From positions 116,417 through 180,416 of IMG/VR virus record IMGVR_UViG_3300036766_000678: a stretch of DNA of 64,000 bases, one strand, 5' to 3'. This document shows, piece after piece, positions 7,277 to 38,245 of the stretch. Each line of letters starts with the position of its first letter. Position 1 is the first letter of the stretch. The position numbers were made by a program, and so were the translations under genes. Below the pieces are notes generated by a model that had not been told where the DNA came from, made no database searches, and saw nothing but the letters and a program-made list of their open reading frames with translations. The stretch is from a virus.

Positions 7277-7513
7277 TTACTTTGTAACTGAAAAACCTAC
7301 TGCTTCCAACCTTCCAATTAATACAGACAAATCATCTGGCCCGTAATCCACGACCCCAATTTGCTTGATAGCAGTATGAAGATCGTCAATTGTCAGTTGT
7401 TTTTTGGGCCATTGTTTCAATAAAATCTCTGAAATATAATTAGGGTCTATAGTGAAACCACCATATTTAATTACTTTCAATTTATAGGAACTTCCAATCT
7501 TATTTAATGCCAT
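7277..7513 (-). CDS. Small protein sharing an N-terminal leader with the prohead protease
   Basis: MALNKIGSSYK versus MSLQKIGSSWK. Confidence 0.65.
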   Translation of the reverse strand: MALNKIGSSYKLKVIKYGGFTIDPNYISEILLKQWPKKQLTIDDLHTAIKQIGVVDYGPDDLSVLIGRLEAVGFSVTK

Positions 7514-7514
7514 A

Positions 7515-8180
7515 TTATTTACCTAGAAAATGTCGGACATCTTGAATAGAAACCGCTAAAGTTATTCCTGACCAACTAAAAGAACTGCCTTCAGTCATTG
7601 CATTAACTCCCACTAATTCTCCTCTATAATTAAAAACACCTCCACCAGAAGAACCTGAATTAATGGCAGCATCTGTTACTATGTATAAACTTTTATATAA
7701 TTCTATTTCAACATTTAAAGCAGATACAATACCATGAGAAACTAAAAATTCCATATTAAATGGGCTTCCAACATTTATAATCTCTTCTCCAACTTTTAAA
7801 TGTTTACCTAATTTGACATATTTATGACGTAATCCTTTTACACGAAGAAGACTTAAATCGTGGAGGGCATCTAACTTAATTACTTCTGCTGTATATGATT
7901 TTCCATTTATATCCCTAATCCAAATTTGTGAGGGAACAGTGGGTTGAAAACAATGCCCAGCAGACAGTATTTCATCCTTAGAAATAAATGTGCCAGAACA
8001 TCCGCCACGTAAAATTTGTTCTTTACCTTCTTTATTTTTAATTTTAGCTTTTATATGAATAAGTACAGAAGCTTTAAGTGCTCGATTAGTGGCTCTTTCG
8101 TAATTCATTTTTGCATTGGCACAACTAGAAGAACTTAAAACTATCGTGCTAGTTAGCAACATAGCTAGTAATTTTCTCAT
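7515..8180 (-). CDS. Trypsin-like (S1) serine protease with N-terminal signal/anchor
   Basis: Triad motifs LSAGHC, HDLSLL, INSGSSGG; hydrophobic N-terminus. Confidence 0.88.
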   Translation of the reverse strand: MRKLLAMLLTSTIVLSSSSCANAKMNYERATNRALKASVLIHIKAKIKNKEGKEQILRGGCSGTFISKDEILSAGHCFQPTVPSQIWIRDINGKSYTAEVIKLDALHDLSLLRVKGLRHKYVKLGKHLKVGEEIINVGSPFNMEFLVSHGIVSALNVEIELYKSLYIVTDAAINSGSSGGGVFNYRGELVGVNAMTEGSSFSWSGITLAVSIQDVRHFLGK

Positions 8181-8928: not shown

Positions 8929-9118
8929 TTATCTCTCCTTTTCGTTTCTTATCATATAAGTATTCTAGGTATTCTAAGTTATTTCTAGGTTCATAACCTA
9001 AACACTCAGAAGCACCATTTAAAAGTTTTGGGCAATAACAATGTATTGGAACATACTCACTCTCAGAATTTCCATAATAATGTAAACAATTACAATTTCT
9101 ACATGTACTTAAAAACAT
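8921..9118 (-). CDS. Small Cys/His protein with DNLxYLE tag
   Basis: CRNCNCLH...CLGYEPRNNLEYLEYLY. Confidence 0.75.
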   Translation of the reverse strand: MFLSTCRNCNCLHYYGNSESEYVPIHCYCPKLLNGASECLGYEPRNNLEYLEYLYDKKRKGEINV

Positions 9119-12100
9119 TATCTTTCAGGTGCGGCCAACTCAACAGCTCCGCCTTCGGGAGCTTCTACCATTTCTGGTGTTGCTCCAACTTCTCCTGGTA
9201 CTTCTTCACCTACTCCTTCTGCACCTTCTTCTCCAGGTTCAATTGGTTCTATAGGTTCTACTGGTTCGGGCATTTCCCCACCCATTCCACCCCCACCGGC
9301 ACCTACTTCTCCACCGCCAGAAGGTTTACTAATTTTTGCGGGTATACGATCTTTCCCACCACCCTTATCAAAAATAGTACCTCTTTCTTGTTCAAGATTT
9401 TGTCTTTCAGTTTCAAAATCAAGCTCAGGAAATTTAGCGAAAAGAGTCTTTGTAGAAATAAGGCCCTTATCATGAAGATCCATCATTCTGTCTTTTTCCG
9501 CATCTTCATCTTCAATATCCAAAGATTTATACCAAGAGATCTGTGGGAGAATTAATTCTTTTTTACCAGTAGCAGGATCAACAGTATAAAAATTATTCTT
9601 TTCTGCAATAGGTCTAAAGAAATGGTTTATCATCCAATCTTCAAATTTATCTCTTACGGTTTTATATTGCATAACAAGGGCATGTAATGCCATTGTTTTG
9701 CTATTACCAAAATTGGGGCCTTCTCCTAAGATAACGTTCTTGTTCACACCCATACCAACAAGCAATTGATCTTGAATGTAATCATATTCAGCATTAAGAG
9801 GAAATTGTTTTCCCATAACACTTAATGGTTCATATTTAACAATGGGGGGAGCAAAAATACTAAATGGGGGATTCTGAATAGATTGATTAATTAAATTTTT
9901 CCAGTTACTAATATCCTGCTCACTTGGCATAGTATTGGAAGCTAAATCTCCAATAGTCCACAACTCTTTTGGGAACACATAATTTTGTGCGTAAGCGGAT
10001 TGAGCGAGACGTATCCAGTCCTGAAGTATGAGGGCCTTAAATAAACAGTTGTGAACGAACACACCACAATCCAAAGCAAAGTTGTGAAAATTTCCAACAG
10101 ATTTAATATCATATAATTCTTCTGCTGGTAAAATTTCTATGGATAAAACCTTATGGTTAAGTCTTTTTTTCTCTGCTACTTGTTTTTGTTTTTCAGCAGC
10201 ATTTTTTCTAAATTCAGGAGAACGACGAATAGCTAATATTTTTGCAACATATTCTGGATCTTGCCAACGACGTTTCATTGACTCACCTTGTACAAGAAAA
10301 GAGCCATTCTCATTCTTTGTTTGTGCTATTTTAGCTTTTACTTCAGGACGTTGCTGCACAATTTTTTGAGTTTCAGAAGTTTTCTTTCTATATTCAGGAT
10401 CTGCTTTGCTTATACGCATGGCAGTAACAGCATTATTCCTATATTCTTCAGTTTCCCAAAGTTCTTTTAATCTTTCTGATTGAATTTCATGCCGTTCTTC
10501 TTTTTCCCACGACCTAATTACCCCAGCAGTTAGATTTTTTATAAAATCTGGATTCTGTCTAGCTTTTTCAACTAATGCTTTGTGTAATTTTATATGATCC
10601 TTTCTGGATAAGACCAATAAATTTTCAGGTGTATTATCTGTTTTATGAAAATTTTGATGATGAACAATATCCTTTTTACTAACTGCCCCATTAATAAAAT
10701 CGGCTACCACACGATGAGTATATTTCCAAGCATCATCGGCTGGATTATAGATAAGTTCATAGCCAGTAATAGTTCTGCTTTCTTCCCCAAGTTTACTAAT
10801 TTTGGAATATAAAGGCATCAAACTTTCACCCACAGAAAGAAATTCAGCATTTTTATAAGATCCATCTCTAAGCACAATAGGGTGTTCCTTAGAACATTTA
10901 ATATAATTCCCACTATCTAAAGTTATCTTATAAACTATATCTTTTTTGGTGAAAACAACTTCGTCTGCACGTCCTGGAACAATACTATTATTTTTATCAA
11001 TACTATAAACCCAAAAATTCTTTCTTTTTAGGTCAAAAAGTTCTTTCAAAGTTGGGGAAGTCCCATCCAACAAACGAATCTTTGTATCTCCCGTTAAACA
11101 CTGTATGGGACTTGTCCCCCTCGTAGCAGAGGGGTCTGTAAGATCGGCAATCATCGACGTACAATTCTCATCTAGCTTAATATTTCGATGATCATTAATT
11201 GCATTAACAAGTTCTGGAGAAGACTCTTTTAATTTTTCTACTCTCTCCTGATCTTCGGGACGAGTGGAAGATACTAATGCTTTAAGTTCTTCCGTTGGAA
11301 TTAATTCAAAAGTTTGAGTACCCGTAAGCATATCTGTTTTAATTTCAACAAGTTCTGGTTCCAATAACACAAAATTTGCCCAGCGATACAGTTTCTCTTC
11401 ACCTTTTGGATTTTCAACATCCTGAGTCATATTTCCAAAACAAATAGCTTCACCAAATTTGTTATAAGAGATACTAGCTCTTAAAATATAGGAGAGAAGA
11501 TTGAAATGCTGATTTGAACACATCTCTTCATAAAATTTCTTTACAGAAACATCTTGGACAACTAAATCAAATTTGGAAAATGGATAGGCTGCATGTAAAT
11601 TTGTAATACGTTTTACATACGGTTCCAAATTATAGAATATACGACAGTTATGAGTGGTAAATGGAACATTAATTGTATGATCTTCTGTAGTTACACAACA
11701 AAAATCTTTATCCGTATCAAATACTTCTACCCCAGTAACAGGAAAATAGAAGTATTGGTCATCTTCAAAATACATAACTTCTGTATTTTCATTTGAATAA
11801 CTCCCAGGATAAATTTTATTAACATTTTCCCCAGAAATACCTAATGTATATGCAAAAGGTGCCACAGATTTCATCTGGATTTTAGATTTCTTATTTATAT
11901 AAGCTAAATCTTGTTCTCTTTGTCTAAACCAGACAGGTACTCCAACTTGATTAAAAAGAAGATGACCTTTATAGGCTAAAGATTGAGAAACAGTACATAC
12001 GGACATAGCAGGTCGTGAAGGAGTAATATTTTTAACTGTTCCATCTCCCCTTACCCATCCTCGTAAAAAAGAAAGAACTAAATTGTTTTCTAACTCAAAC

Positions 12101-13107
12101 AACCACATAGGAATATCTTTAATATTTGATCCGGTATTAAAATACTGCACAACAAATTCAGCTAACACAGAACTATTAACAAATAAACGAATACTTCCAT
12201 TGTGTGGGCCAATATGAATTTTATGTTCTGGTATATGAAATTCTGTAATTAAAGTTTCTTTTAAAGCTTTTGCTATATTTTCCTCGTCATGAGATAGAGT
12301 TAAAGTAATAGCATTTTTATGTCCTTCGCTATCAGCAACATGACCTTCTGCAATATACCAACCCAAAAATTCTAATACCTTATTTGTAAGTGGTAAAAAT
12401 CTTGGCATACTATATGCTACATCTCTACTTACAACTTCTAAAGAATTCTCAGAAGGCGTAACAATTTTAACTCGTCCTTTATGTAACTTATAAATTGAAC
12501 GTTCTTTTAAAGTAGGAACATACAAATCAATTTTAGGTGCTTCAGTAGAAGAAAATTTAATTTTTGGACAAGCTACTAAATCCCCCTCTTGAAGAAGATT
12601 TGCATCAATCCAAGTTAATTTTTCTTTCGGAGTAACAAAACCAAAGCGTATAGCATCTCGTAACGTTCTATGTTGACCTTTAGCTTGAATCCCAAGTACA
12701 GGATGATAGGAAGCCATTTCTACAGGAGGACAATATTTAATTGTAAGTTTAACTGCGCTGGAGTCTGCTTTCTTACGTTGAATATCTAAAACTTTTTGCC
12801 AAATACCTTTTCTTGATAAAACTAAATCTCCTATCTTTACATCAGAAATTTTCTTGTATACACCATTACACAAAATTTCTTGATCTTCGAGAATGGGCCA
12901 TTTAAGGATTTCTTGACGTGATTTGGGAAGAAGCCACGATTCACTCGTCAGCTCAGGTGAATAGAAAAAACTATTTGTTTGTGTGACTTGATACTCTCCC
13001 TCTTTCAAAAGAGAAGCTTCTTTCTTCACTCCAGTTAAACTCTGAGGTGCTGTGAAATTTGCTTGTGGAGTTCCTTTCTTTGGTATGCCTTTTCCTTTTC
13101 GTGCCAT
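9118..13107 (-). CDS. Portal protein with two inteins (561 aa after splicing)
   Basis: Spliced sequence RQEILKW|CRIFYNLEP...GTSPIQ|CLFKALILQD...GEGPNFGNS; directly downstream of terL; acidic Gly/Pro tail. Confidence 0.8.
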   Translation of the reverse strand: MARKGKGIPKKGTPQANFTAPQSLTGVKKEASLLKEGEYQVTQTNSFFYSPELTSESWLLPKSRQEILKWPILEDQEILCNGVYKKISDVKIGDLVLSRKGIWQKVLDIQRKKADSSAVKLTIKYCPPVEMASYHPVLGIQAKGQHRTLRDAIRFGFVTPKEKLTWIDANLLQEGDLVACPKIKFSSTEAPKIDLYVPTLKERSIYKLHKGRVKIVTPSENSLEVVSRDVAYSMPRFLPLTNKVLEFLGWYIAEGHVADSEGHKNAITLTLSHDEENIAKALKETLITEFHIPEHKIHIGPHNGSIRLFVNSSVLAEFVVQYFNTGSNIKDIPMWLFELENNLVLSFLRGWVRGDGTVKNITPSRPAMSVCTVSQSLAYKGHLLFNQVGVPVWFRQREQDLAYINKKSKIQMKSVAPFAYTLGISGENVNKIYPGSYSNENTEVMYFEDDQYFYFPVTGVEVFDTDKDFCCVTTEDHTINVPFTTHNCRIFYNLEPYVKRITNLHAAYPFSKFDLVVQDVSVKKFYEEMCSNQHFNLLSYILRASISYNKFGEAICFGNMTQDVENPKGEEKLYRWANFVLLEPELVEIKTDMLTGTQTFELIPTEELKALVSSTRPEDQERVEKLKESSPELVNAINDHRNIKLDENCTSMIADLTDPSATRGTSPIQCLTGDTKIRLLDGTSPTLKELFDLKRKNFWVYSIDKNNSIVPGRADEVVFTKKDIVYKITLDSGNYIKCSKEHPIVLRDGSYKNAEFLSVGESLMPLYSKISKLGEESRTITGYELIYNPADDAWKYTHRVVADFINGAVSKKDIVHHQNFHKTDNTPENLLVLSRKDHIKLHKALVEKARQNPDFIKNLTAGVIRSWEKEERHEIQSERLKELWETEEYRNNAVTAMRISKADPEYRKKTSETQKIVQQRPEVKAKIAQTKNENGSFLVQGESMKRRWQDPEYVAKILAIRRSPEFRKNAAEKQKQVAEKKRLNHKVLSIEILPAEELYDIKSVGNFHNFALDCGVFVHNCLFKALILQDWIRLAQSAYAQNYVFPKELWTIGDLASNTMPSEQDISNWKNLINQSIQNPPFSIFAPPIVKYEPLSVMGKQFPLNAEYDYIQDQLLVGMGVNKNVILGEGPNFGNSKTMALHALVMQYKTVRDKFEDWMINHFFRPIAEKNNFYTVDPATGKKELILPQISWYKSLDIEDEDAEKDRMMDLHDKGLISTKTLFAKFPELDFETERQNLEQERGTIFDKGGGKDRIPAKISKPSGGGEVGAGGGGMGGEMPEPVEPIEPIEPGEEGAEGVGEEVPGEVGATPEMVEAPEGGAVELAAPER
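10048..11100 (-). mobile_element. HNH-type intein (351 aa), portal intein 2
   Basis: CLTGDTKIRLLDG...CSKEHPI; HNH core YTHRVV...VHHQNFHKTDNTPENL; ends FVHN followed by Cys(+1). Confidence 0.92.
11647..12897 (-). mobile_element. LAGLIDADG intein (417 aa) with Pro at position 1, portal intein 1
   Basis: PILEDQEIL...ASYHPV; FLGWYIAEG and FLRGWVRGDG; block F FCCVTTEDH; ends TTHN followed by Cys(+1). Confidence 0.8.
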
Positions 13108-13430: not shown

Positions 13431-15074
13431 TTATGGCCTATCCTTAAGGTACTTGCTCTGGAGAGGGTTCTGTTGCCCAGGCATTGGAATATGCCGCCCA
13501 TGTAAATTAGAAATCCCCGCTTGAGGGGAAGCCATAGAACTAATAGACTTAGAAATCTTATCAGAGTGTGCTTTCATTTGGTCGGCGGCCCAGATTCCTA
13601 GCACGTTGGACATCGTGAAATCGTCGTGTCCCATAGAAGTATCTACAAAAATTTGGTCATTAATTCCAGCTCTACTCTTGTGCCGTTCCAATAAGCACCA
13701 TTGAGAAAATCCTTCTCGAAATAGTTTATTATTCTCAATTTTATCCATTGTCGGATATTGAACTCTACCACTATCAAGCTCAAATATAAACTGATCTACC
13801 ATGGCATTTTTATAATTTTTCTTCGTAATAGGTTCAGAAGCATTAAAAGTTATTCCAGCTATTGGAATCTTTTCTTTCTGGAACATTTCAACAATACTTA
13901 TTGCAATATTACTATAATCAGCAAGACCAAAAACACACTTAAAAACACCTGTTTCTGGATGAATAATCTGTTTTATTTCTTCCATCTGTTCTACCACATT
14001 TCCCTGCCAAGAAAATTGAGCCACACATTGTTTAATGTTATCATGTGTCTTACGCCAAATTGAAAGAACAGTGAAGTCTAAATCTTTTTTACCAGGAAGA
14101 AGAGTACCACTAGCCGTATCCAATCCGAAATAATATTTTTCAGTAAGTTGGGGACGGCCTTCTTCAAGGACATCAAAATCGCCAGATATTAAAAGTTTTT
14201 GCTGTTCAGCAGAAAGTACAAGATTGATATCTTCCATCCATATCATCTCGTACTGAGTATTCCATTCAACTTCTGAATAACCTTCTACGCTGTCATAGTG
14301 CAGTAATGGATCGTTGGGGAAATATTTCTGTTTGACAGTACGAGGCATCAAATCTACAATACGTTTGGGGTATTCGTTACCTTCGTATAATATAGAACCC
14401 TGTTGCCAATAAATATCACATTCTCTCCAATTCTTTTTTAATACTTTATATTTTGTATTTGGGGAGTTACAACTTTGAAAAAAATTGTTCTTATAAAGAG
14501 AAATTCCAACCTTGATTGTTTTTGCAACAGAAAAACTACCAAGCATTGGAACAAGTTTCTCACGTACAACCCAGTCACTTACTCTCTGCGCTTCGTCGAT
14601 TAAAATTAGCATAAAATGCTCTGATTCCTGGGTTGCCGTTTCGGAAGCAGACAAAGCTTTTATCGTTGAACCATTCTTAAATGTGACTAGAGAATTGGAG
14701 GTTTTGTTCCAATCAATATCATTATAAACAGACGAAGAAGGAGTAAGAATACGCCCAATAATATCTTCTTTTACTAACCGTTTAGAGGTTTCACCTTTAG
14801 GACCAAAAATACCAATTCGGAAACCTGGGTTATCCAAACAAACTTTTACAAGAGCAATAGCGGCGGCATAAGTTTTTCCAGAGCCGCGAGAAGCTAAGAT
14901 AGCCAAATAGGGGAGACTTAAATTTGTTATATCATTAATAATGGAAATCTGATTGTCATACAAGTCAATATTAAGATTAGTAAGTGCCCAATAACTGGGG
15001 TCAACGGCAGCTTTATTAAGCGTAGGAAATCGGATAGAGAGTTCATTTTCTACAAGAGAGTCGAAGCGATTCAT
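13431..15074 (-). CDS. terL: Terminase large subunit
   Basis: Walker A ASRGSGKT, Walker B LILIDEAQ, RNase H-like nuclease motif YFGLDTASG and C-terminal HDD. Confidence 0.9.
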   Translation of the reverse strand: MNRFDSLVENELSIRFPTLNKAAVDPSYWALTNLNIDLYDNQISIINDITNLSLPYLAILASRGSGKTYAAAIALVKVCLDNPGFRIGIFGPKGETSKRLVKEDIIGRILTPSSSVYNDIDWNKTSNSLVTFKNGSTIKALSASETATQESEHFMLILIDEAQRVSDWVVREKLVPMLGSFSVAKTIKVGISLYKNNFFQSCNSPNTKYKVLKKNWRECDIYWQQGSILYEGNEYPKRIVDLMPRTVKQKYFPNDPLLHYDSVEGYSEVEWNTQYEMIWMEDINLVLSAEQQKLLISGDFDVLEEGRPQLTEKYYFGLDTASGTLLPGKKDLDFTVLSIWRKTHDNIKQCVAQFSWQGNVVEQMEEIKQIIHPETGVFKCVFGLADYSNIAISIVEMFQKEKIPIAGITFNASEPITKKNYKNAMVDQFIFELDSGRVQYPTMDKIENNKLFREGFSQWCLLERHKSRAGINDQIFVDTSMGHDDFTMSNVLGIWAADQMKAHSDKISKSISSMASPQAGISNLHGRHIPMPGQQNPLQSKYLKDRP

Positions 15075-21892: not shown

Positions 21893-24800
21893 TTAGTCTG
21901 GATTAACAGACTCGATTCCCCCATCTTGAGGAAGACTGTCAAAAAGTGTCACACTGTACCATGCCATTCCACCTGGGTAAGTTCTATTGAATGGTTTATT
22001 CAAAATATCCAAGAACACGGTTTGTGGTTGCATATCCTTTTGTTGAGGGAAATCATTAGTATTTTGATTAAAATCCCATACCCCATTTCCAATTGCATCC
22101 CAATTGGTATAAGCTGTTTCTCCCCCATTATCCATATGCTGCTCATTATAAAAACTTTCGCCCTGTTGGTCAGTGTAAGTACTTGAATAATTACCCGCTA
22201 TTTTCTCTAAAGGTCTGGTAATCCTCACTATACAAGCCTTTCTCTTTTCCTGCTCTTGAAGCATCTCTATAGTTTTTCCGTCGTCTGATTGATCCCCACG
22301 AGGTCTGGATGTGAACTTGTAGGGCCAACGCCAATTTTCGTTAGCTGGATTACTAACAGCATCGTAAGTTACAGGAAGAGGTGAATAAGGTTCTCCACTT
22401 TGGGGATTTGGGTTGCTCCAATCCGTTTTTGGCTTGTTAGAATCAAGCTTATTGAGATCACGAAATCCTTTGGAGTATTCTAAAAGAGTTTCATTCTCTC
22501 CAAGTTCCTTTTGCTCGATCTGTTCTTGCTCAGTATCAGAAGCCGACTCAACTTCTTTTTTACTAAAAGGTTTTCTTATCATGTTCCAAATTTGTTTCCA
22601 AAAATCGCTGCTTCTTGGTTTTCCAACCGTACATGGAGCATAATATGTTTGTTCATCAGAGACCGAATCGGGTTCCAGCGGAATTTCAAGATCTGAGTCT
22701 GGAGTCCATTTGTTATCTGGTGCATTGACAAGAGAGGGAAGAAAAGCAGCATTCTTATCTATCTTTTCCAAAACAAACCCACCATCTTTCTCATTGCCAA
22801 TAGAAAAATATGTTTTGTTACCCACCGCAGGAGAAAATACAACTGTATCAAGTTCTATCTCTCTACCCTCAAATTCAGTAGATCCTATAAAATCTTTACC
22901 TAAACCTTTCTTCACATAAGCCAAAGTGATATGTGGGTGGTATTCATCTGACACAAGCCCTTTAGCACATTCAAGCTTTTCACACACTTCTTTATTCATA
23001 TGTTCCAAATCTTCACTGACCACTTCAACCGTTACTACATCAAATTCTGCGTATTCAACATCAGGTTCGAAATGTTTTACTTTACCCAATTTCCCTTTAA
23101 ATGGTTTGTGATCATTAAAAATCCTACGAGCTGTTTTAGGGTTATCATCTACAAGACCATACTTGATGGTGATATGAACTTCGAGTTCCCTCCCGAATTT
23201 ATCCTCATCAATATACAAAGCATCATCTGGAATATTTTTTACTCCAAACTCAACAATCTCTTGAGCAAGTTCATGTGGAACTAAGGCCATTAAGCAGCCA
23301 TATTCCCCCATTTTTACTTTCTTAGTTTGTGCTGTAATTTCTTTTTTAGAAAAAACTTTAGCTATTACTGGTTGTCTTAAAGCTCTATTTACTTGTTTCT
23401 GAATGAAAGGAAAAGGATCATTCACTTTAATATAATTACCTTCTAAATCATCAATTTCAATTCCGTTACCTGTATAATGCTGTGCAATAAAATTATCAAG
23501 ATAATTTGGAAGTCTTTTTAAATCTTGAACTTCTATAGCGAAATCAGATCCTTCTGAAGTTTCTTGACCAGAAGTGATACGAGTCCAGCCATCAGCAATA
23601 AGTTGATCAGCCATAGATTGAATTTCATCTAATGATTTAATTTGAGGAAATTTTTGTTTTATAAATCCGTAATGCCCACCAGTCCCAGAAATATCATACT
23701 CTTTGCCACTAGGGTCAATCCAATATTTGATTCCCAATGCTGCTACAATTCTTAAAGAAGCTTTCTTTTCGGGCTTTCCAATTTCATTTACAATCTCTTT
23801 CCAGTTATTTTTAAATTGAATTGCTCTATCATCCACTAAGACCTGATACAAGGGTTTTCCTATAAAAATTGAATCATAGGTAAGATTATTCTTATCTAAA
23901 AATTCTTTAACATTATCTTCATCTACATTGGAACGATATGAATAAACAACAATATTCCATCCATTTTGTTTTAATGTATTAAGAGCTTCTTTAGCTCCTT
24001 CCATTAAATTTCCAATACTTCCATCTTCATTTTCAGTAGCAAGGGTGTCATCAAGATCAATATAACATTGTCCTAAAGCTGGATTATCTTGAGAAGTAGG
24101 TTTTACTTGGGCTTTCTTCATGAAAGAAGCAAATTTAGACATAGAAGAGGTTTTATTAAATCTTTCTACTAATTGTCTAGCTCGTAACCATCCAATAGAT
24201 GAGAGATTTATAACTCCTGCACCACCATAATTATCAGATGTAGTAGGAATACCGATAGCATCCATAACAGAATAATGATCTAAATCGTAAGCATCCCAAA
24301 TATACAAATCGCCTTCAGGCGAACCAAAATATCTCATTACCCCATTTTTTGCTTTCCGATATATGTCTTCAGCCAAATCTGGAGAAGGATTTTTATATAC
24401 TCGTACCTCTTCTCCTTTTGGGGTATGAAGACGAATCACATCACCAGCTATTTTACTAATAGAAGCTGTTTGAAGTCTTTTATGAGATAGAGCTTTATTA
24501 ACTGCCTTTTGAATACCTTCTTCTATAGCATCTTCATACTGAACTACGACTGAAGAATCGCCCCCATTCATAAATCTATAGGAACTAACCAAAATTTTCG
24601 GATGTCCACTACCAACAGCAATAATAAAATTATCTATGTATGATGGTAAAGCATGTAAATCTTCAACTTCCACATTAATGTAGCTTCCTTGTGTGCTTGC
24701 CCTGATCCAATCACTATCACCAGGAGGACCATCTGGAAATTTCTTAGTCATCCACTGCGAATGTTCCCCATGTGGCTCAAAAGGATAAATCTTCCCATCA

Positions 24801-25738
24801 GGTGAAATCCAATATTTCTTATCGGAAGCTAATTTATTTACACTACCTTCACTAATAATCTTTTCAATTAAAGGAAGTTCTTCTGTAGTAACTTCTCCTC
24901 CAGTAGATTCAAGAAGTTCTTTCAAATTTTGGAGAATTGCAAAGAATCCATGACGGGCGAGATATTTAAAAAGAATCTCGTTTTCTGAAGTTGGATCTTG
25001 ATTAGAATGGCGATAGTCAACGAGATCCTGTTTAATCTTGAGATCTTTCTTAATCTCTTCTTCAATATCATTAAGCTTCTTCTCAATTTTAGTATAAAAT
25101 AATTTTTGCTTATCCTTGCCCCACGCTTTAATAACATTCTCTAACTCATCTATTCTTTGTATATCTCTTTTTACTTTGCCTAAACTGCCATCAAGTTCTT
25201 GGGCTAAAGCTTCTGCCTCTTCAACTACTTGACGTTTACTTTCTTCAATATCTAATTCAGCAGGGAAAAATATAGGATCTTTTAACCATTCATCTTTATA
25301 GAGGGAATATACTCCAACAGCTTCAGTATTACTTGGATGAAGTTCAATACTCTCAATGTAAAATTCCGTTGGGTGCTGTGTCATAGGTGCAAGAATCTTT
25401 GCTCTATCGAATTCTTTTCTTGTTTCATCGAGTTTTGCAAAAGCTGCTTCTTTAGAAGCATTCGGCATATTTGTTTTTATAAATTCATCAAGATTAACTC
25501 GAACGTGAACGTCCATATCCGATGTTAAAAGCCACTTTGCCGTTGTGAGACTACCTAGAATAACTACATCATCTACCCATTTTTCATAATCTTTTAATGA
25601 ATAAGTTTCGTACATCTTGTCAAGTAAACGAAGAATAAAGTCTCGTTGATAAGCATAAAACCTCATGTCCTGATCCCATACGGCTGGATCGAGAAATGGA
25701 TAAGAAAAATCAAGGATTGAACTAGACTTAGTTAACAT
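21893..25738 (-). CDS. 1281-aa multidomain protein: Pol-beta-family nucleotidyltransferase + duplicated YWIxPxGK domain + HAD phosphatase + 2H phosphoesterase (Acb1-like)
   Basis: GSLT...SDMDVH; YIDLDDT...VDDRAI; VHITIKYG and YHPHITLAY. Confidence 0.75.
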   Translation of the reverse strand: MLTKSSSILDFSYPFLDPAVWDQDMRFYAYQRDFILRLLDKMYETYSLKDYEKWVDDVVILGSLTTAKWLLTSDMDVHVRVNLDEFIKTNMPNASKEAAFAKLDETRKEFDRAKILAPMTQHPTEFYIESIELHPSNTEAVGVYSLYKDEWLKDPIFFPAELDIEESKRQVVEEAEALAQELDGSLGKVKRDIQRIDELENVIKAWGKDKQKLFYTKIEKKLNDIEEEIKKDLKIKQDLVDYRHSNQDPTSENEILFKYLARHGFFAILQNLKELLESTGGEVTTEELPLIEKIISEGSVNKLASDKKYWISPDGKIYPFEPHGEHSQWMTKKFPDGPPGDSDWIRASTQGSYINVEVEDLHALPSYIDNFIIAVGSGHPKILVSSYRFMNGGDSSVVVQYEDAIEEGIQKAVNKALSHKRLQTASISKIAGDVIRLHTPKGEEVRVYKNPSPDLAEDIYRKAKNGVMRYFGSPEGDLYIWDAYDLDHYSVMDAIGIPTTSDNYGGAGVINLSSIGWLRARQLVERFNKTSSMSKFASFMKKAQVKPTSQDNPALGQCYIDLDDTLATENEDGSIGNLMEGAKEALNTLKQNGWNIVVYSYRSNVDEDNVKEFLDKNNLTYDSIFIGKPLYQVLVDDRAIQFKNNWKEIVNEIGKPEKKASLRIVAALGIKYWIDPSGKEYDISGTGGHYGFIKQKFPQIKSLDEIQSMADQLIADGWTRITSGQETSEGSDFAIEVQDLKRLPNYLDNFIAQHYTGNGIEIDDLEGNYIKVNDPFPFIQKQVNRALRQPVIAKVFSKKEITAQTKKVKMGEYGCLMALVPHELAQEIVEFGVKNIPDDALYIDEDKFGRELEVHITIKYGLVDDNPKTARRIFNDHKPFKGKLGKVKHFEPDVEYAEFDVVTVEVVSEDLEHMNKEVCEKLECAKGLVSDEYHPHITLAYVKKGLGKDFIGSTEFEGREIELDTVVFSPAVGNKTYFSIGNEKDGGFVLEKIDKNAAFLPSLVNAPDNKWTPDSDLEIPLEPDSVSDEQTYYAPCTVGKPRSSDFWKQIWNMIRKPFSKKEVESASDTEQEQIEQKELGENETLLEYSKGFRDLNKLDSNKPKTDWSNPNPQSGEPYSPLPVTYDAVSNPANENWRWPYKFTSRPRGDQSDDGKTIEMLQEQEKRKACIVRITRPLEKIAGNYSSTYTDQQGESFYNEQHMDNGGETAYTNWDAIGNGVWDFNQNTNDFPQQKDMQPQTVFLDILNKPFNRTYPGGMAWYSVTLFDSLPQDGGIESVNPD

Positions 25739-26195: not shown

Positions 26196-27290
26196 TTACT
26201 TATTTCCAACCTTATCAATTGCATCTTTAATTTTAGCGTCTGTTTCTGGATCTTGAATCAAGATAAATCTAGCACAGCTAGGACAAAAGATACTAAATCT
26301 TTTAGAGGTATTTAACAATGATCCATCCTCCGCCCTATCGAAACCCATTGGTCTTTTATCAGCTTTGTCCTCTAAGAAATTTTCTCTGCACGTACTACAG
26401 TAAAAAGATTTGGGTATTAGTTTCTTATCTTTCTTACCAGGAACTTTAACTTCGTTAGCCTCTTTAACTTCTTTAAGAATCTCTGGGCTAATGGCTAAAG
26501 GACCCACTACTTCTTTTGTAGTTTCCTCTTCAATCTTAGCCATTTCTTTAAATTGTTCATCACTCATCTTAGGTATTTCATCCATCTTAGCTCTCCTTTG
26601 AAATTCTTCCATTATCTTAATACTGTTGCTAGTGCCTACTCTTGACGCTCCTGCTTCTATCATCATTTCTAGATCAATCAACGAACGAATTCCTCCACTG
26701 GCCTTAACCAATACGCCTGATCCTTTTACTTGATCGGCCATTAGTTTGACATATCGTGCTGTTTCTTTTGGCTCTAATTTTGCTAGGAAGCCAGTAGATG
26801 TTTTCACATATGAAAGACCTGTCTCTATAGCTAAATCACAACAATGTTTAATCTCATCGTCGGAGAGCAAGCCACATTCTAGTATTACTTTTAAAATAGG
26901 TTGAAACGTTGGTGCAGTTGGAATAGTTTTTCGTAATGTTTCAAACTCATGCTTTATTCGCAACCAATCACCCGTTTTTACAGCCGATATATTTAAAACA
27001 AAATCAAATTCAGTAGCCCCATCATTAAATGCTCGTTGCATCTCAGTTACTTTGGAATCTATATTAGAGATTCCATGAGGAAATCCTATTACCGAACAAA
27101 TTTTTATATTGACACTCATATCTGTATGAACATATGAATGTAACAAATTAGACACTAATGGAACATGGAAACTTGAAACACAGACACTGTGAAAATTCCA
27201 TTTAACTGCTTGACGGCACAAATCTGTATAATTTCCCAGAGGTGCGGAGGGAATAAGAAGCGTATGATCTATCAGACGATTAATTTCCAT
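26196..27290 (-). CDS. deoC: Deoxyribose-phosphate aldolase with a C-terminal zinc-ribbon extension
   Basis: IDHTLL, CSVIGFPHG, EFDFV, KVILE, YVKTSTG, VKASGGIR, GASRVGTS; extra CSTC..CPSC domain. Confidence 0.92.
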   Translation of the reverse strand: MEINRLIDHTLLIPSAPLGNYTDLCRQAVKWNFHSVCVSSFHVPLVSNLLHSYVHTDMSVNIKICSVIGFPHGISNIDSKVTEMQRAFNDGATEFDFVLNISAVKTGDWLRIKHEFETLRKTIPTAPTFQPILKVILECGLLSDDEIKHCCDLAIETGLSYVKTSTGFLAKLEPKETARYVKLMADQVKGSGVLVKASGGIRSLIDLEMMIEAGASRVGTSNSIKIMEEFQRRAKMDEIPKMSDEQFKEMAKIEEETTKEVVGPLAISPEILKEVKEANEVKVPGKKDKKLIPKSFYCSTCRENFLEDKADKRPMGFDRAEDGSLLNTSKRFSIFCPSCARFILIQDPETDAKIKDAIDKVGNK

Positions 27291-27849: not shown

Positions 27850-29898
27850 TTACAAAAGTCCTTTCAAATAGGTATTAGCTAATTCTACAAGCTTTTTAGG
27901 ATCAATTTTCTCAAGATTCTTCACACTATCTACTGCATAAGCCAAACTTCTATCTTTATCATGGCCTTTTTTAACAGCACTTGCAAAATTATTAAGGGCT
28001 ATGTTATAAGTTGGAGATCCTGTAGAAGCAGCAATTTGATCTTGTTGATCTTGTGTTAATAATTGTTCTTCTGCATTCTTAACAATATTTAATTCTTTCT
28101 TACTAAAAGCTGGCAAGCCTACTGTAATTTCTTCCATAGTTTGTAAATTAAAAATTGAACTTTGATTGTTTGCATTGGCCAACTGTAATGCTTCTTCTTT
28201 AGTTGGAACAGTATTTACAATATCTAAATAAATTTTATTTCCGTGCTTCCACGCAGCAAATGAATTATTTGGATCATTTAACAAATCTTGATTATTTATA
28301 ATATAACCCTCGATAACATCAAAATCCACACTATCTACAATTTGTTCTTTATCTTTATGTGTGCTAACTGCAAACATAGGTGTATTAATTAAATTTCCTT
28401 TTTGCAAATTATAAGTAACCCCACCAGTTTGTTCAATTAAATATAAGATATCGTTAACAACTTTACCAGAAACATCAGCTTTCTTTTTTAATTCTTTTTT
28501 AGATATCTTCTTTGATGCAGCAATATTATCCCAAGGTTCTGCATCTTTATCAGCTTGGCCACTAGGCATCCACGTATCAGAAGGCCACTGGCCATCTCTT
28601 TGTTTTCCTAAATCAGTTGGGCTATCATAAAACGAGTGGCCAGCATCGGAGTTCCGTTCTTGTTCTTCAGATTCAGCAGAACTGTATTTGCTTAAGTCTA
28701 AAGCCTTTCTTGTAGCCTCATCGAAAGATAATTTAGACTTATCCATAAACTCTATTATTTTACTTTTATAATCTACATGAACAGGTTTAAAACCTTTTTG
28801 CTCTAAAATTTGTAATACTTTATCTAGAGAAAGACCTTTCTTTTTAGAATCTATTTGTATTTTAAATTGTTCTAGTTTATATTTAGTGTCTGTCTTTAAA
28901 TTGACAATATCTTCATCAGTAAGTTGGGGGGCTTGATCTCTAATAAATTGAACAACTTGGCTCCAACGTATACCTTTTTGGAAAAAGTATTCTTGAATAA
29001 CATCTTCTCCAATAGATATTGCTAATGCATGATCTGTTTCGGGTGAAGCTTGTTTCTCTTCTGAAGCTTCAGTATTTTTCCATGATTCATAGGCTGTCTC
29101 ATTCCAAGGGCGCATACCAAAATAAGTTGTATTACGTTGGGCTGGCCATTTTTCATCTCTCAAATCCCCTTGAACTTTCTTTTCAGGTAATTTCTTAATA
29201 AGCCATTCTCGTGGGATATTATATTTTTCTGTGGCAAGAGTCCAAATCTTAGCTGCCAAATCTCCAATATCATCGACGGTAACGAAGGGGAAAGATTCTG
29301 CTAATTGCTTAATTTCGACGGGAGGCACACCAGCTTTGACCACCGTAGTTATCAATTTCATTAACCATTGGTATTCAGGTGAATATTTAGAAATCTCTTG
29401 CTGGCCTCTTCCTGGATCATAAGTAGAAATTGGCTCACCAAGCTCATCTGCTCTAAGAAGTTTCGCATTCTTAATTCGTGTAATATGCTGTTTAATTTGT
29501 TCTTTTTTGGTTGGGTCTATCTCTTTAGAAAGTTGATCTAAAAGTTCATCAAGCTTTTTCTTTTTATCTAAAATAGGCAATTGTTCTATAGAAAATTCTC
29601 CTGGAAGAGCTTCATCTCGTTTAACGGTATTAAACCAAGCATAGGCTAATTCTTTCCAATTAACAATATCATTCCCAGGAGCATCTAACCAAACTCTTCT
29701 AATATCTGGAGTATTTCTTTCTAATGTTTCTTGCATCCAAAAATAAAGCTCATCTTCATTTTTAAGAGAATTGGCAGCAAGAATTACTTCATGCATTACA
29801 TTGGGGTGAGAAACAATGTAATCATTAACTCGTTTGGTTACTTGATTTGAATATTCTTTCAAATCAGCTTTGATGTCTTTTTTGGAAAATTTATGCAT
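27850..29898 (-). CDS. Large mosaic protein, probable virion cargo
   Basis: SKKDIKA, EKQAS, SKKELKKKA, VKNAE sites; module GGVTYNL...AAW..IYLDI...EEALQLA..NQSSIFNL. Confidence 0.5.
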   Translation of the reverse strand: MHKFSKKDIKADLKEYSNQVTKRVNDYIVSHPNVMHEVILAANSLKNEDELYFWMQETLERNTPDIRRVWLDAPGNDIVNWKELAYAWFNTVKRDEALPGEFSIEQLPILDKKKKLDELLDQLSKEIDPTKKEQIKQHITRIKNAKLLRADELGEPISTYDPGRGQQEISKYSPEYQWLMKLITTVVKAGVPPVEIKQLAESFPFVTVDDIGDLAAKIWTLATEKYNIPREWLIKKLPEKKVQGDLRDEKWPAQRNTTYFGMRPWNETAYESWKNTEASEEKQASPETDHALAISIGEDVIQEYFFQKGIRWSQVVQFIRDQAPQLTDEDIVNLKTDTKYKLEQFKIQIDSKKKGLSLDKVLQILEQKGFKPVHVDYKSKIIEFMDKSKLSFDEATRKALDLSKYSSAESEEQERNSDAGHSFYDSPTDLGKQRDGQWPSDTWMPSGQADKDAEPWDNIAASKKISKKELKKKADVSGKVVNDILYLIEQTGGVTYNLQKGNLINTPMFAVSTHKDKEQIVDSVDFDVIEGYIINNQDLLNDPNNSFAAWKHGNKIYLDIVNTVPTKEEALQLANANNQSSIFNLQTMEEITVGLPAFSKKELNIVKNAEEQLLTQDQQDQIAASTGSPTYNIALNNFASAVKKGHDKDRSLAYAVDSVKNLEKIDPKKLVELANTYLKGLL

Positions 29899-29903
29899 GG
29901 GAA

Positions 29904-31751
29904 TTACATCCCGTAGGAAGATCCACTACCTGGAGTTTTAGTTTTCTTTAGCCATCTTTTTTGTGTTTCATCCCAAAAAGATTCTATATTTGGGTCGGGA
30001 TCGGGAGGAGGGGGGGTTTGCAAACTATCTGCTTTAACTTCTTTTGTTGATTCTTTCTCTACTTCTTTTTCTTCTAATTCTTTAACTAAAGAAGAGTGTT
30101 CTGGTTCAACTTTCTCTTCTTCAGAAAGTTTAGGGGTAATATTAAGCTTTTCTTCTACAGACCAAAGAAGATTTTCCATTTCTTCAATTGCGGGATGAAC
30201 ATCTTGTTCAACATCGTTACCTTGAAGTTTTGTTTCCAAGAGGTCGATGCCCATTGTAAGATCACTAAGCAGTTCTGGTATATCTAGTTCTGAATTATCT
30301 TGTTCTCCATTACCAGCTTCTTTAGGTAAAGGATTAGATTGAAGTCTTTCTTGAACTTGAGTCATTCTATCTCGTAGTCCTTGAACTTGTGTATGTAATT
30401 CTTGATAAGGATCTACAAGGACTTCAGCTTTCAACCCTAATCCAGCATCACAAGCATGTGGATTTACAAGGGCTTCTTTCTTACTGAAAGGTCGTAATGA
30501 CCCTTTCATATGCTTTATTCGCTCCACTTCTGCCAATCTTTTTTCAGCAGCAGCTCTATTGGAAAAACATCCTCCACTCCAATTTTTATTTTTAGGAGAA
30601 CGAACACACCATTTGCCATTTTCTTCTACAATAATAGCTACTTTATTTAATGAACTTTCCATCTCCATATCTTCTTGCTCTCGTTCTTTACGAGCATTTG
30701 GGCAACCTGTTTCATGGCAGAATACACCGTTAATCATAGCTGCTTCACATTGGTCACAGCCACGAGCGTTCTTTTCAGTAGCAGCATTAACATCCATTCT
30801 TTGATTGGGAAGAACTGGAGGAAGCTTAGTTGGAAGTTGCGGAGTAATTTGTTGTTTAAGAGCTTCTACACTAAATCGTCCACATGTAGGACATTTCTCA
30901 TTTTCTTTTCCTGCAAAATTTCCATGACAATCTGGGCAATCTTTTTCTGCGGTTACATCTGGATTAAGCGATTCTGGTGTAGCAGGAGGTTGAGTAGTGG
31001 AATTATCATGAGTAGGTAATATTGCATTCTTTTTTTCCCAGTGGACACCAGCCATGGGGCACTCAATCAAAACTTCAGTCTCATGCATTGCCAATACCTT
31101 GTCCGTATGACCTTCATGGGGCACAGATTGGCCTTCCTGCCCTATAATATTCACTTTTGAAGCTGGAATCCATCCACGAACTCCGTTGCTTAATTCAGCA
31201 AATTTGACTTGTTTCCTATCTTTTGAAGTAGACAAGATAACAATCTTAGAACCCTTCTCTAAGAAGGCTACTTTCTCTGTTAATTTCCCCTGTTTAAATC
31301 CATGCGTTAATTCATTCTGAATTGCAAGCTTAAGCTCAGCTTCAGACCACTGTTTACCATTGGCTGGCTTAATGTGCATTACTTTCTTACCTGTATTATC
31401 TGACACATCGTAACCAATTGAGGAATCTTTTACGATGGGGGTTACATTCCACTCACGATTAAAAGCAGATACTTTTACAGGAGCACCACCAGGTTGTTTA
31501 ACTACATCCGGTTTGTGCGTAACTCTATGAGCATTATATTCATTCCAATCATCAAATTCTTGTTGGCAAATTGCACAGGTATTTTTTGCTTCTGTTTCTA
31601 ACTCTGCCTTATTTTTGATATATTCTTGTTTTAAATTCGTTATTTGTTTTAATTCCTCTGTTAAAGAAAGATCTTTGTTAGATGCAATCTTAAGTAGTTC
31701 TGAGGTCATCCAATCTAAATTTTTTAAATAAGCTTCTTTTTTATAACTCAT
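29904..31751 (-). CDS. Large mosaic protein, probable virion cargo (start taken at MSYKKEAY)
   Basis: Short Cys modules CAIC, CPDC..CPTC, CDQCEAAMINGVFCHETGCPN, KWCVRS...GCF...AEKRL, separated by KxA sites. Confidence 0.5.
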   Translation of the reverse strand: MSYKKEAYLKNLDWMTSELLKIASNKDLSLTEELKQITNLKQEYIKNKAELETEAKNTCAICQQEFDDWNEYNAHRVTHKPDVVKQPGGAPVKVSAFNREWNVTPIVKDSSIGYDVSDNTGKKVMHIKPANGKQWSEAELKLAIQNELTHGFKQGKLTEKVAFLEKGSKIVILSTSKDRKQVKFAELSNGVRGWIPASKVNIIGQEGQSVPHEGHTDKVLAMHETEVLIECPMAGVHWEKKNAILPTHDNSTTQPPATPESLNPDVTAEKDCPDCHGNFAGKENEKCPTCGRFSVEALKQQITPQLPTKLPPVLPNQRMDVNAATEKNARGCDQCEAAMINGVFCHETGCPNARKEREQEDMEMESSLNKVAIIVEENGKWCVRSPKNKNWSGGCFSNRAAAEKRLAEVERIKHMKGSLRPFSKKEALVNPHACDAGLGLKAEVLVDPYQELHTQVQGLRDRMTQVQERLQSNPLPKEAGNGEQDNSELDIPELLSDLTMGIDLLETKLQGNDVEQDVHPAIEEMENLLWSVEEKLNITPKLSEEEKVEPEHSSLVKELEEKEVEKESTKEVKADSLQTPPPPDPDPNIESFWDETQKRWLKKTKTPGSGSSYGM

Positions 31752-32557
31752 TTTAATTGTTCCTTTAATCCTGCTTCGATCAATATTTTTTCGTAAAATT
31801 TGGTTGCTTCCATTGGTGTACATTTATTTTTCTTTGTACTATTGGCTAAATGAGTCATATACTGTAAATTCCAAATAACATGTAAACCAAATACCCCAGC
31901 AGCTTGAAGAGGAATAACATGGTCCCCAGTCATACCTTTAGGTTTATTTCTATAAAATTCCTGCATCCCTTCCTGACCCCAAGATACTTCTCTTAATTTG
32001 CGTTGTTCATCCTGTCTTAATTTAATTAAGGCTTCAATTTCGGGATGATCTTTTCTCCATTTCTTGTTTCTAATTTTAGATTCTTCTTTATGTTCTTGAT
32101 TATATTTTCTATGTTTAACTAAAAGCTCATCTCTATTATTTTCATAATGTTCTTTACTTCTTTCTTGCATTTTTTCTTTGTGTTCAATAACATAAATTTT
32201 TAAATATTCTTCTCTACAAATATTGCAACAACCATCCTTTCTTCCACAAATAAATGTGTCATGTCCATTAAGACAAATTTGTTTTAATCTAGAATCTTTA
32301 GAAGGATCTTTCCGCCTTTCAATTCCTTTTTCTTTTTTACATAGTATGCAACTACCATCACTATATGTACCGACTAGATCTTTATCATGTCCTTTAGGAC
32401 AAAATTGGACTTTAGATATTGGATGTGGAAGGTAGGTTCGTAAGTGATCTTCTAATTTACATTGTTTACAATTACCTGATTTAGTCCTACCTACTATAGA
32501 TATATCATGCCCACGAAGACAAAATTGTTTCTTAGAATGAACAATTGTTTTAGCCAT
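31748..32557 (-). CDS. HNH homing endonuclease with three CxxGHD zinc modules
   Basis: FCLRGHD, FCPKGHD, ICLNGHD; DHVIPLQAAGVFGLHVIWNLQY; paralog of 545..1111. Confidence 0.8.
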   Translation of the reverse strand: MAKTIVHSKKQFCLRGHDISIVGRTKSGNCKQCKLEDHLRTYLPHPISKVQFCPKGHDKDLVGTYSDGSCILCKKEKGIERRKDPSKDSRLKQICLNGHDTFICGRKDGCCNICREEYLKIYVIEHKEKMQERSKEHYENNRDELLVKHRKYNQEHKEESKIRNKKWRKDHPEIEALIKLRQDEQRKLREVSWGQEGMQEFYRNKPKGMTGDHVIPLQAAGVFGLHVIWNLQYMTHLANSTKKNKCTPMEATKFYEKILIEAGLKEQLK

Positions 32558-37582: not shown

Positions 37583-38245
37583 TTAGAAATTGCACTTAGA
37601 AAGATTTTTAAGATTCTTCTTAGGAATGTTAATTACTTCGTGGGCTATGCCAGTAGATAAGCACTCTTCTGGAAAGAAGTAACGATTCAAACCAGTATTT
37701 AATAATGATAGCCATTCATCTTGACTTATTTTAGTACGAGAAGCATACCAAGAACTCCACCTCTGAAAATACTGTTTGTGCAAATCTGCTTCGGCGTTAA
37801 TTTGAGGAAGTGTTTGGCGTTCTAACATAGCTGACCCCGAATGTGCCATACAAACTGTATTTGGGTATAAAATTCTATGGTCACATGAAAGATAAATATC
37901 AAATGCTGCTGACATTGCTTTCCCAAAAACAACCCCAATAACAGGGACAGGACAAGTTAAAATAGCATCAACAACAGCTTGACCAGCCTCAATAGAACCT
38001 CCCTCGCTATGAAGAAGAAGCTTAATGGGCTTATTATTCTTCTGAGCTAACGTAGTAAGAGGTAAAACAACTCTTTCAATAACATCGTCTTTAATTTCTC
38101 CTGTTAAAAGAATTGTGCGATCTTTTAAAAGAGCTTGATAACTCTCAAAACAAAATTGATCGAACGGAGAAAATTGTGGTTGTTGTTCATTATCATTATC
38201 TTGTGGTTTCATTTTTCTTCTCCAATTTCCCATATTTCCATTCAA
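37583..38245 (-). CDS. clpP: ClpP-like protease (likely start at 38212)
   Basis: DRTILLTGEI, HSEGGSI, GKAMSAA (Ser), MAHS (His), EECLSTGIAHEV. Confidence 0.85.
   Translation of the reverse strand: MNGNMGNWRRKMKPQDNDNEQQPQFSPFDQFCFESYQALLKDRTILLTGEIKDDVIERVVLPLTTLAQKNNKPIKLLLHSEGGSIEAGQAVVDAILTCPVPVIGVVFGKAMSAAFDIYLSCDHRILYPNTVCMAHSGSAMLERQTLPQINAEADLHKQYFQRWSSWYASRTKISQDEWLSLLNTGLNRYFFPEECLSTGIAHEVINIPKKNLKNLSKCNF

Follow-up and report, generated by a model that had tools for sequence, protein, structure and literature searches.

What does a phage make from a single gene in which three unrelated enzymes follow one another, set apart by short linkers of similar sequence? The question is raised by a polyprotein gene in a stretch of 64,000 nucleotides, referred to here as the window, that covers positions 116,417 to 180,416 of IMG/VR virus record IMGVR_UViG_3300036766_000678 (an uncultured phage; 180,416 bp, estimated completeness 94%). 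The original prediction for this locus, made from the letters alone, described one multi-enzyme protein, and a single intact open reading frame (ORF) of 1281 amino acids (aa) is indeed present. Our reading, to which we give a probability of about 0.5, is that the gene product is a beads-on-a-string polyprotein of the kind known in phages as ‘polyvalent proteins’, and the original interpretation is partly supported by the analysis: the notion of a multi-enzyme, probably processed cargo protein can be kept, but its Acb1-like label is not specific. New here are the R module, the fixed backbone of the family, the statistics and predicted disorder of the K-x-A linkers, the proposed link to an HtrA-type protease, and a conserved block of genes. 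Eight modules succeed one another from the N- to the C-terminus in the order NT, R, X, HAD, R, 2H, CT1, CT2, and they and their linkers are given below in that order; a slash in a linker marks the predicted cut.

21893..25738, minus strand: polyprotein ORF, uninterrupted, 1281 aa, 146 kDa, isoelectric point (pI) 4.9
24839..25738, minus strand: NT module, aa 1-300
24827..24835, minus strand: linker N-K302-L-A304/S between NT and R copy 1
24458..24823, minus strand: R copy 1, aa 306-427, YWIxPxGK...H..W...Q.AVN.AL; local hidden Markov model (HMM) E 1e-26
24446..24454, minus strand: linker S-K429-I-A431/G between R copy 1 and X
24134..24436, minus strand: X module, aa 435-535, local HMM E 1.3e-26; recurrent, with 53 copies in the family
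24110..24136, minus strand: double linker S-K535-F-A/S-F-M-K541-K-A543/Q; relatives read SLKEAFLKEAFE
23774..24064, minus strand: predicted HAD phosphatase, aa 559-655, capless, BT0820/EcbF/GmhB-like, with DxDxT, S, K and DD
23759..23767, minus strand: linker E-K658-K-A660/S; K in 27/29, A in 28/28 and S in 25/28 relatives; predicted local distance difference test score (pLDDT) below 50
23348..23731, minus strand: R copy 2, aa 670-797, local HMM E 7e-41; pLDDT mostly above 90
23330..23350, minus strand: variant linker S-K-K-E-I-T-A, aa 797-803, before 2H; FSKKEI[TI]A in relatives
22778..23326, minus strand: 2H phosphoesterase, aa 805-987, about 183 aa, with H855-x-T857 and H936-x-T938
22748..22756, minus strand: linker D-K995-N-A997/A; K in 19/21 relatives; pLDDT below 50
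22229..22750, minus strand: CT1, aa 997-1170, conserved, with FLPSL.NAP.N.W, PDSVSDE and GKPR
22196..22204, minus strand: linker E-K1179-I-A1181/G; K in 19/22, A in 24/25 and G in 24/25 relatives
21896..22198, minus strand: CT2, aa 1181-1281, very acidic, pI 4.05

The architecture is that of a family. Thirty homologues cover the full length, and the mapping of modules with local HMMs shows that about 60 relatives share the backbone order NT-HAD-2H-CT1-CT2, between the modules of which R and X are placed in variable number together with other inserts. Some family members carry known domains at these places, namely PF18760 ART-PolyVal (two members), PF18823 InPase (one), and PF02195 ParBc (two). 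The catalytic motifs of the nucleotidyltransferase (NTase), HAD and 2H modules are all conserved and intact in the family alignment, and all modules are acidic. The relatives belong to uncultured phages whose records reach about 190 kb, and a megablast search with the polyprotein locus returned no match.

All six K-x-A sites named in the original prediction are present, and the analysis supports the idea that such sites set the modules apart: the motif is conserved in the linkers, and its statistics are those of a cleavage site. Sites 541, 658, 995 and 1179 are among the best-conserved positions outside the domains in the family alignment; at site 541, K is retained in 24/27 and A in 26/27 relatives. 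In the AlphaFold model of aa 660-1000, the K-x-A sites coincide with disordered stretches with a pLDDT below 50, and the same is true of the region around the variant linker (aa 790-810). Within this one protein the excess of the motif is modest (10 K.A against 5.9 expected, and 7 K.A[SAGYF] against 1.58, P 0.0012). In the short linkers of 63 family proteins, however, K.A occurs 283 times against 84 +/- 8.5 in shuffled sequences, a 3.4-fold enrichment, while it is depleted in the module cores of the same proteins (146 against 223 +/- 13.5). A scan of all gapped dipeptides returns K.A as the strongest linker motif outside the modules (z 21.9), followed by K..S and AS, and K.A lies 14 or fewer residues upstream of 76 of the 107 R copies of the family, as compared with 7.9% of background windows. 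The family consensus of the linker is K-x-A-[S/A/G/Y]. Because K.A is enriched between domains and avoided inside them, the linkers have the look of protease sites, and they are probably cut, with cleavage predicted to occur after the Ala residue.

Which enzyme would cut them is suggested by the gene content of the window, in which two candidates lie on the same strand as the polyprotein.

7515..8180, minus strand: PDZ-less HtrA/DegP-type serine protease, 221 aa, Pfam Trypsin_2 E 1e-23; candidate processing enzyme
1114-5820, minus strand: ORF of 1568 aa with a head-maturation-protease-like N-terminus (phrog_18299, E 1.5e-5)

The HtrA-type protease matches DegP and HtrA1 in the PDB (E 6e-17), and its GHC and GSSGG catalytic motifs are intact. 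It is encoded in this genome and in 5/5 related records checked, and in L013, L014 and L016, which represent two more distant lineages, the polyprotein gene follows immediately after that of the protease. No such protease is present in 4 records, two complete phages among them, that encode an NT protein devoid of R, X and CT modules. HtrA, DegP and DegS favour small aliphatic residues (Val, Ala) at P1, as in the cleavage of RseA by DegS between V148 and S149, and this preference fits cleavage after Ala. We infer that the polyprotein linkers are cut by the phage's own HtrA-type protease. The second candidate is the head-maturation protease of ORF 1114-5820, the N-terminal protease region of which is broken by an intein (Hint, Intein_splicing) and is followed by a long Lys/Ala-rich tail. 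A third protease in the window, of the ClpP family (37583-38245, minus strand; PF00574, E 1.6e-24), resides among small genes outside the head module.

Similar motifs are seen at a few other places in the genome. Exon 1 of the capsid gene, which runs downward from about genome position 116218 and thus lies before the start of the window, reads GGLQKIAQQ near residue 33, and the 1568-aa protease ORF (window 5790-5820) and a 78-aa ORF (7483-7513) begin with MSLQKIGSS and MALNKIGSS, respectively; they may be K-I-[A/G] sites of a related kind, in a pattern that was picked post hoc. The extended pattern [LIVMAS][QNSEDT]K[ILFV][AG][SGQAT] has 15 sites against 4.4 +/- 2.0, a count that is given little weight because the pattern was designed post hoc and one of its matches falls within an intein.

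The gene lies in the neighbourhood of packaging genes. The large terminase subunit is encoded near the polyprotein; among cultured phages, Bacillus phage G has the most similar terminase (30% identity).

13431-15074: TerL

The order p639, p682, DeoC-like, small ORFs, polyprotein, (HNH), p534, (HNH), p917, TerL, portal is kept in 10 loci, across which the identity of the NT module ranges from 31 to 75%. The closest known class of proteins is that of the phage-type polyvalent proteins (Iyer, Burroughs, Anand, de Souza, Aravind 2017, J Bacteriol, PMC5512222), which are polypeptides, encoded by phages or conjugative elements, that each combine 2-15 domains with disparate biochemical activities (PMC5512222). 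The present protein joins NTase, HAD and 2H domains to five further modules; its relatives contain ART-PolyVal, InPase and ParBc, and the hallmark domains of the polyvalent network comprise ART-PolyVal, InPase, DdrB-ParB, MuF, portal, and MPTase; and its gene belongs to a block that ends in TerL and portal. Both the described proteins and this one are large, consist of unrelated enzyme domains, and adjoin head or portal genes, and both are proposed to be processed into units that are delivered along with the DNA (for the described class, PMC5512222). The gene placement, together with the ART-PolyVal, InPase and ParB inserts, is what leads us to assign the protein to this class, and in this context the polyprotein would be packaged into the virion and cleaved.

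The match to the class is not complete. A zincin-like metallopeptidase serves as the hub domain of polyvalent proteins, being present in about 36% of them without being obligatory (PMC5512222), and its place appears to be taken here by a separate HtrA-type gene and the K-x-A linkers. In the same survey, Pol-beta NTases are found only in proteins of conjugative elements, HAD domains are not listed, and the word ‘phosphatase’ does not occur, whereas 2H is listed as a phage-type polyvalent domain and is proposed to act as an RNase or as a degrader of defence nucleotides (PMC5512222, 2H section). A second likeness is to giant phages (phiKZ, SPN3US; PMC10052503, PMC5694885), in which a prohead protease trims many internal head and ejection proteins at a three-residue motif and these proteins are ejected into the cell. 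The motif in SPN3US is A-x-E, in contrast to the K-x-A found here with its presumed cut after Ala, and the protease is of the T4 gp21 type instead of the candidate HtrA type; moreover, the cuts in SPN3US mostly strip N-terminal propeptides, whereas the sites described here separate whole modules.

An abundant module of the family is R. The two copies in this protein share 36% identity (BLASTP, E 3e-13), the module being about 125 aa long, and an iterated local HMM recovers 107 copies in 33 family proteins, with 1-9 in each, and 189 copies in a wider set of proteins. Despite a confident model, comparison of the R fold with the PDB gave no match (best Z 4.9), a search of the ESM Atlas gave no usable match, and stand-alone R proteins were searched for and none was found; as modelled, R is a module without a known fold. 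R, X, CT1 and CT2 of this protein and its relatives match no Pfam family, the LPD families included. CT2 forms the C-terminus of 43 of the family proteins analysed.

That R can occur up to nine times in one protein and is also found in a protein of the neighbouring p682 family raises the question of whether R and X are the working parts of a structural internal-head or ejection polyprotein, in which the enzymes are passengers; the acidity of every module and the conserved CT1/CT2 region, which could serve as an anchor, agree with such a role. We hold it to be very unlikely, as the catalytic residues of the three enzymes are nearly invariant, the order NT-HAD-2H is fixed while the copy number of R and X varies freely, and R is without detectable similarity to known structural proteins. 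The p682 gene itself lies two genes upstream of the polyprotein (27850-29898, minus strand). Its homologues at L013:3418-7857 and L009:3234-6950 contain R and X modules, which suggests that a second polyprotein may be encoded in this block; in the window's own copy, no R or X match is seen at E 0.01.

The NT module consists of a core assigned to the Pol-beta type (aa 29-160) and a four-helix bundle (aa 163-300), and the AlphaFold model (pLDDT 85.7) accordingly folds into an alpha/beta core, as expected for Pol-beta NTases, and then a bundle. Members of this superfamily are recognized by hG[GS] x9-13 Dh[DE]h and a third carboxylate on an alpha-beta-alpha-beta-alpha-beta core; in NT the motifs are near-invariant among close relatives and the core is visible in the model. 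G62-S63 and D74-x-D76 are kept in 28/28 relatives aligned there, E125/E129 in 28/29, and GS and DxD persist in 39 distant members as well. Similarity to characterized enzymes is faint, if consistent. Pfam NTP_transf_2 gives a weak E of 0.033 here, and 8e-5 and 5.8e-5 in relatives, and the best Foldseek matches in the PDB are all Pol-beta NTases but weak ones (E 0.02-0.5), with AAD(9), ANT(6), CdnC, CdnE, KNTase and MNT on top (E 0.02-0.1). VIA-align with the NT model retrieved helix-bundle look-alikes only (Z up to 9.2) and is uninformative on the NTase core. The Pol-beta motifs of the original prediction are thus firmly present, while the identity of the domain is only probable: NT is probably a Pol-beta-type NTase of an uncharacterised family. 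A cGAS/CD-NTase identity was considered as well, and no such claim is made because CdnC and CdnE rank no better in Foldseek than the aminoglycoside NTases. The family itself is large, with 577 clusters, mostly of phages, in a library of 1.84 billion proteins, and a BFVD search matched the module to 11 proteins of phages (E 1e-8 to 1e-11). It is found either by itself, with a length of about 300 aa, or in fusions; a search for short NT forms yielded only fragments of the same family.

The HAD module was correctly placed by the original prediction at 23780-24080 (aa 553-653), and all four motifs of the superfamily are conserved: D561-x-D563-x-T565, S600, K628, and D636-D637 correspond to motifs I-IV. 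The module matches PHROG 1238 (E 2.6e-17), and the family profile finds 1xpj (E 7.5e-11) and 2obb (E 2e-4) in the PDB; Pfam and NCBIfam scores fall below their cut-offs. Judged by these motifs and profile matches, it is a HAD superfamily phosphatase of the small capless type.

The 2H domain, with its two HxT motifs, was likewise located correctly at 22815-23310 (aa 809-974). Pfam PF13563 matches aa 847-943 with an E of 4e-9 (37.1 bits against a cut-off of 27), and H855-x-T857 and H936-x-T938 are retained in 27/29 relatives. A phmmer search of the domain against PDB sequences found no match, and homology is seen by fold search: in the model of aa 660-1000 (pLDDT 84), the domain is most similar to a Deinococcus cyclic phosphodiesterase (Foldseek E 1.6e-6; VIA Z 14.7, 5h7f), followed by Usb1 (Z 13.8), LigT-type enzymes (13.4-13.5), the penguinpox cGAMP phosphodiesterase (13.0), and Acb1 (12.6; rmsd 3.4 over 136 residues). 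The Deinococcus and LigT/ThpR-type 2',3'-cyclic phosphodiesterases (5H7E/5H7F, 5LDJ and 1VGJ; Z 14.7, 13.5 and 13.4) are also of similar length, about 180 aa; they differ in being free-standing cellular enzymes and are only 13-17% identical to the phage domain. The NCBIfam model TIGR02258 scores 19 bits, as compared with a cut-off of 65.7.

The domain had been called Acb1-like, and this is the part of the claim that did not hold: the proposed structural search confirmed the 2H fold, but not a particular closeness to Acb1. Acb1 (T4 gp57B, Erwinia phage FBB1; Hobbs et al. 2022, PMC9117128; PDB 7T26/7T27) shares the fold and the HxT/HxT tetrad. In the FBB1 enzyme, the bases are stacked by the aromatic residues Y12, W74, F107 and W147, and a lid is formed by the C-terminus (PMC9117128). 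Acb1 is a stand-alone protein, with 142 aa in Aeromonas phage 31 and lid residues 145-152 in FBB1, in contrast to a longer domain of about 183 aa inside a polyprotein. A profile of the 2H domain aligned by hhalign to gp57B of Aeromonas phage 31, an Acb1 homologue, reaches a probability of 93% over 77 columns, which lie between the two HxT motifs and leave the N-terminal base-stacking and lid regions outside the alignment, so that the lid and the aromatic residues could not be matched. Pfam Acb1 (PF23474) finds no match at E <= 1 here nor at E <= 0.001 in the 29 closest relatives; it is matched only by more distant NT-2H fusions (P0073, 29.1 bits against a cut-off of 27). As the structural Z scores lie within about two units of one another, the domain is best described, from profiles and model, as a generic 2H enzyme that is homologous to Acb1 but not specifically Acb1-like; finding a 2H domain in a phage does not on its own indicate an Acb1-type activity against cyclic-oligonucleotide-based antiphage signalling systems (CBASS).

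An injected 2H domain whose main role is to destroy CBASS, type III CRISPR or 2'-5' oligonucleotide signals, with HAD and NT as accessories, nevertheless deserves consideration. The intact tetrad, the hhalign probability, the distant fusions that match Pfam Acb1 and the rank of the penguinpox enzyme all agree with it, and such a role was predicted for polyvalent 2H domains in 2017 (PMC5512222). We consider it unlikely, because this protein and its closest relatives leave PF23474 unmatched, Acb1 ranks under cyclic phosphodiesterase, Usb1 and LigT-type enzymes, and the short alignment reaches neither the base-stacking residue near the N-terminus nor the lid at the C-terminus, features known from PMC9117128. 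Such a role would also leave unexplained why NT and HAD are so strictly conserved along with 2H.

The company that NT keeps elsewhere points in another direction. Other large phages repeatedly encode NT-2H, NT-2H-HAD and NT-HAD fusions, outside head modules, and further partners of NT include an LigD 3'-phosphoesterase, DNA/RNA ligases, a CCA-adding-type PolyA_pol head, cREC, HD, RNase PH, NUDIX, and SLT; two NT proteins are also fused to Pfam Acb1. These partner domains suggest work on the 3' ends of nucleic acids or nucleotides, and on such domain associations the healing of RNA or nucleotide 3' ends is favoured over a purely Acb1-like role; of the two uses named in the original prediction, work on RNA ends is therefore preferred to the destruction of defence second messengers. 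At L015:7176-8843 and L015:9716-11617, an NT-2H protein of 633 aa is accompanied, about 0.9 kb upstream, by a separate protein of 555 aa that ends in HAD, so that the trio stays linked there although unfused.

In the polyprotein reading, the HtrA-type protease would cut the linkers, probably after Ala, to release products of about 11-35 kDa, and the polyprotein or its pieces would be packed into the head and reach the host together with the DNA. The 2H enzyme could then open 2',3'-cyclic phosphates, or cleave cyclic or 2'-5' oligonucleotides; HAD would remove the remaining phosphate, and NT would add nucleotides back to the 3' end. Such a trio would complement the phage's Rnl1-type ligase and HD-plus-kinase protein. 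The phage encodes an RNA-repair set that comprises a T4 Rnl1-like ligase (window 59974-61122, minus strand), an HD-plus-PNK-like (AAA_33) kinase (window 54503-55696, minus strand), and a second RNA ligase with a LAGLIDADG intein (genome 52212-54224, minus strand). T4 Pnkp/Rnl1 and fungal Trl1 offer a parallel, as they reverse RNA cleavage by uniting in one polypeptide the removal of phosphate (by an HAD-type domain in Pnkp and a 2H cyclic phosphodiesterase in Trl1) and nucleotidyl transfer. The polyprotein differs from them in having neither a kinase nor a ligase domain, and in an NT of the Pol-beta type, unlike the covalent nucleotidyltransferase of their ligases.

The same shorter NT-2H(-HAD) proteins, which in other large phages lie among DnaJ, RNR, peptidase M15 and tubulin-like genes, bring up the possibility that the polyprotein is a cytoplasmic, non-packaged protein for RNA repair or nucleotide processing, with linkers that are merely flexible or are cut in the cytoplasm, and with its proximity to the terminase reflecting nothing but gene order. 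All genes of the window lie on one strand, so that position tells little about timing, and the other RNA-repair genes of this phage lie outside the head module. On balance this is rather doubtful: the gene order that runs from the polyprotein to TerL and portal is shared by 10 loci, the ART-PolyVal, InPase and ParB domains of relatives are typical of virion-delivered proteins (PMC5512222), and unless a protease is involved it is difficult to see why K.A should be avoided within domains.

Several points nevertheless weigh against a packaged and processed polyvalent protein. The NT-2H(-HAD) proteins outside head modules show that the enzymes can function without packaging. No zincin or other peptidase family appears in Pfam scans of this protein and 30 relatives, and a tblastn search of 50,697 phage records with the NT module found no match that would provide a cultured relative. 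The family motif counts are not independent, as the sequences are related, and duplication of a module may have carried its linker along; shared ancestry could likewise be all that lies behind the joint occurrence of protease and polyprotein. A general prohead-protease code is unsupported, because other head proteins of this genome show no clear enrichment of the motif: a position-specific scoring matrix trained on the relatives finds 2 sites in a genome-wide search against 0-3 in shuffles (threshold 12), and K.A[SAGYF] is elsewhere only weakly enriched, in the 639-aa ORF at 29904-31823 (P 0.01). Finally, the NTase assignment, though probable, is based on motifs and weak matches, and a profile of 39 diverse NT members found nothing significant among PDB sequences, the best NTase being 2rff at E 1.7.

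A bolder version of the polyprotein reading can be formulated, which we regard as speculative and, taken as a whole, unlikely. It supposes that a lineage of uncultured phages follows an undescribed polyprotein strategy, in which one or two giant precursors, encoded beside the packaging genes, are cut at K-x-A/S linkers by a dedicated PDZ-less HtrA protease into small modules, about 8 to more than 15 in number; R would be the unit for packaging or spacing, and a trio of 2H cyclic phosphodiesterase, HAD phosphatase and new Pol-beta NTase would heal, at the time of DNA entry, the 3' ends of RNA damaged by host defence nucleases. If true, this would reveal a route for processing cargo proteins beyond the zincin peptidases of polyvalent proteins and the T4-type prohead proteases, with K-x-A as a simple site that can be searched for in sequences. 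The NT family, which is repeatedly coupled to 2H, HAD and ligases across its 577 clusters, would become a candidate for a new counter-defence function that acts on RNA or nucleotides, and R and X would be defined as two abundant new modules.

Some features of the surrounding block remain to be described. An ESM Atlas search with the neighbour p534 returned nothing usable, with all TM scores below 0.25. A DeoC/LacD-type aldolase-like gene (26196-27290, minus strand) is found 2-5 genes upstream of the polyprotein in 10/10 syntenic loci. Several HNH endonuclease genes also lie near the polyprotein, and the portal gene (9118-13107, minus strand) contains two insertions of the intein type, to which Pfam assigns a LAGLIDADG domain in one case and an HNH domain in the other.

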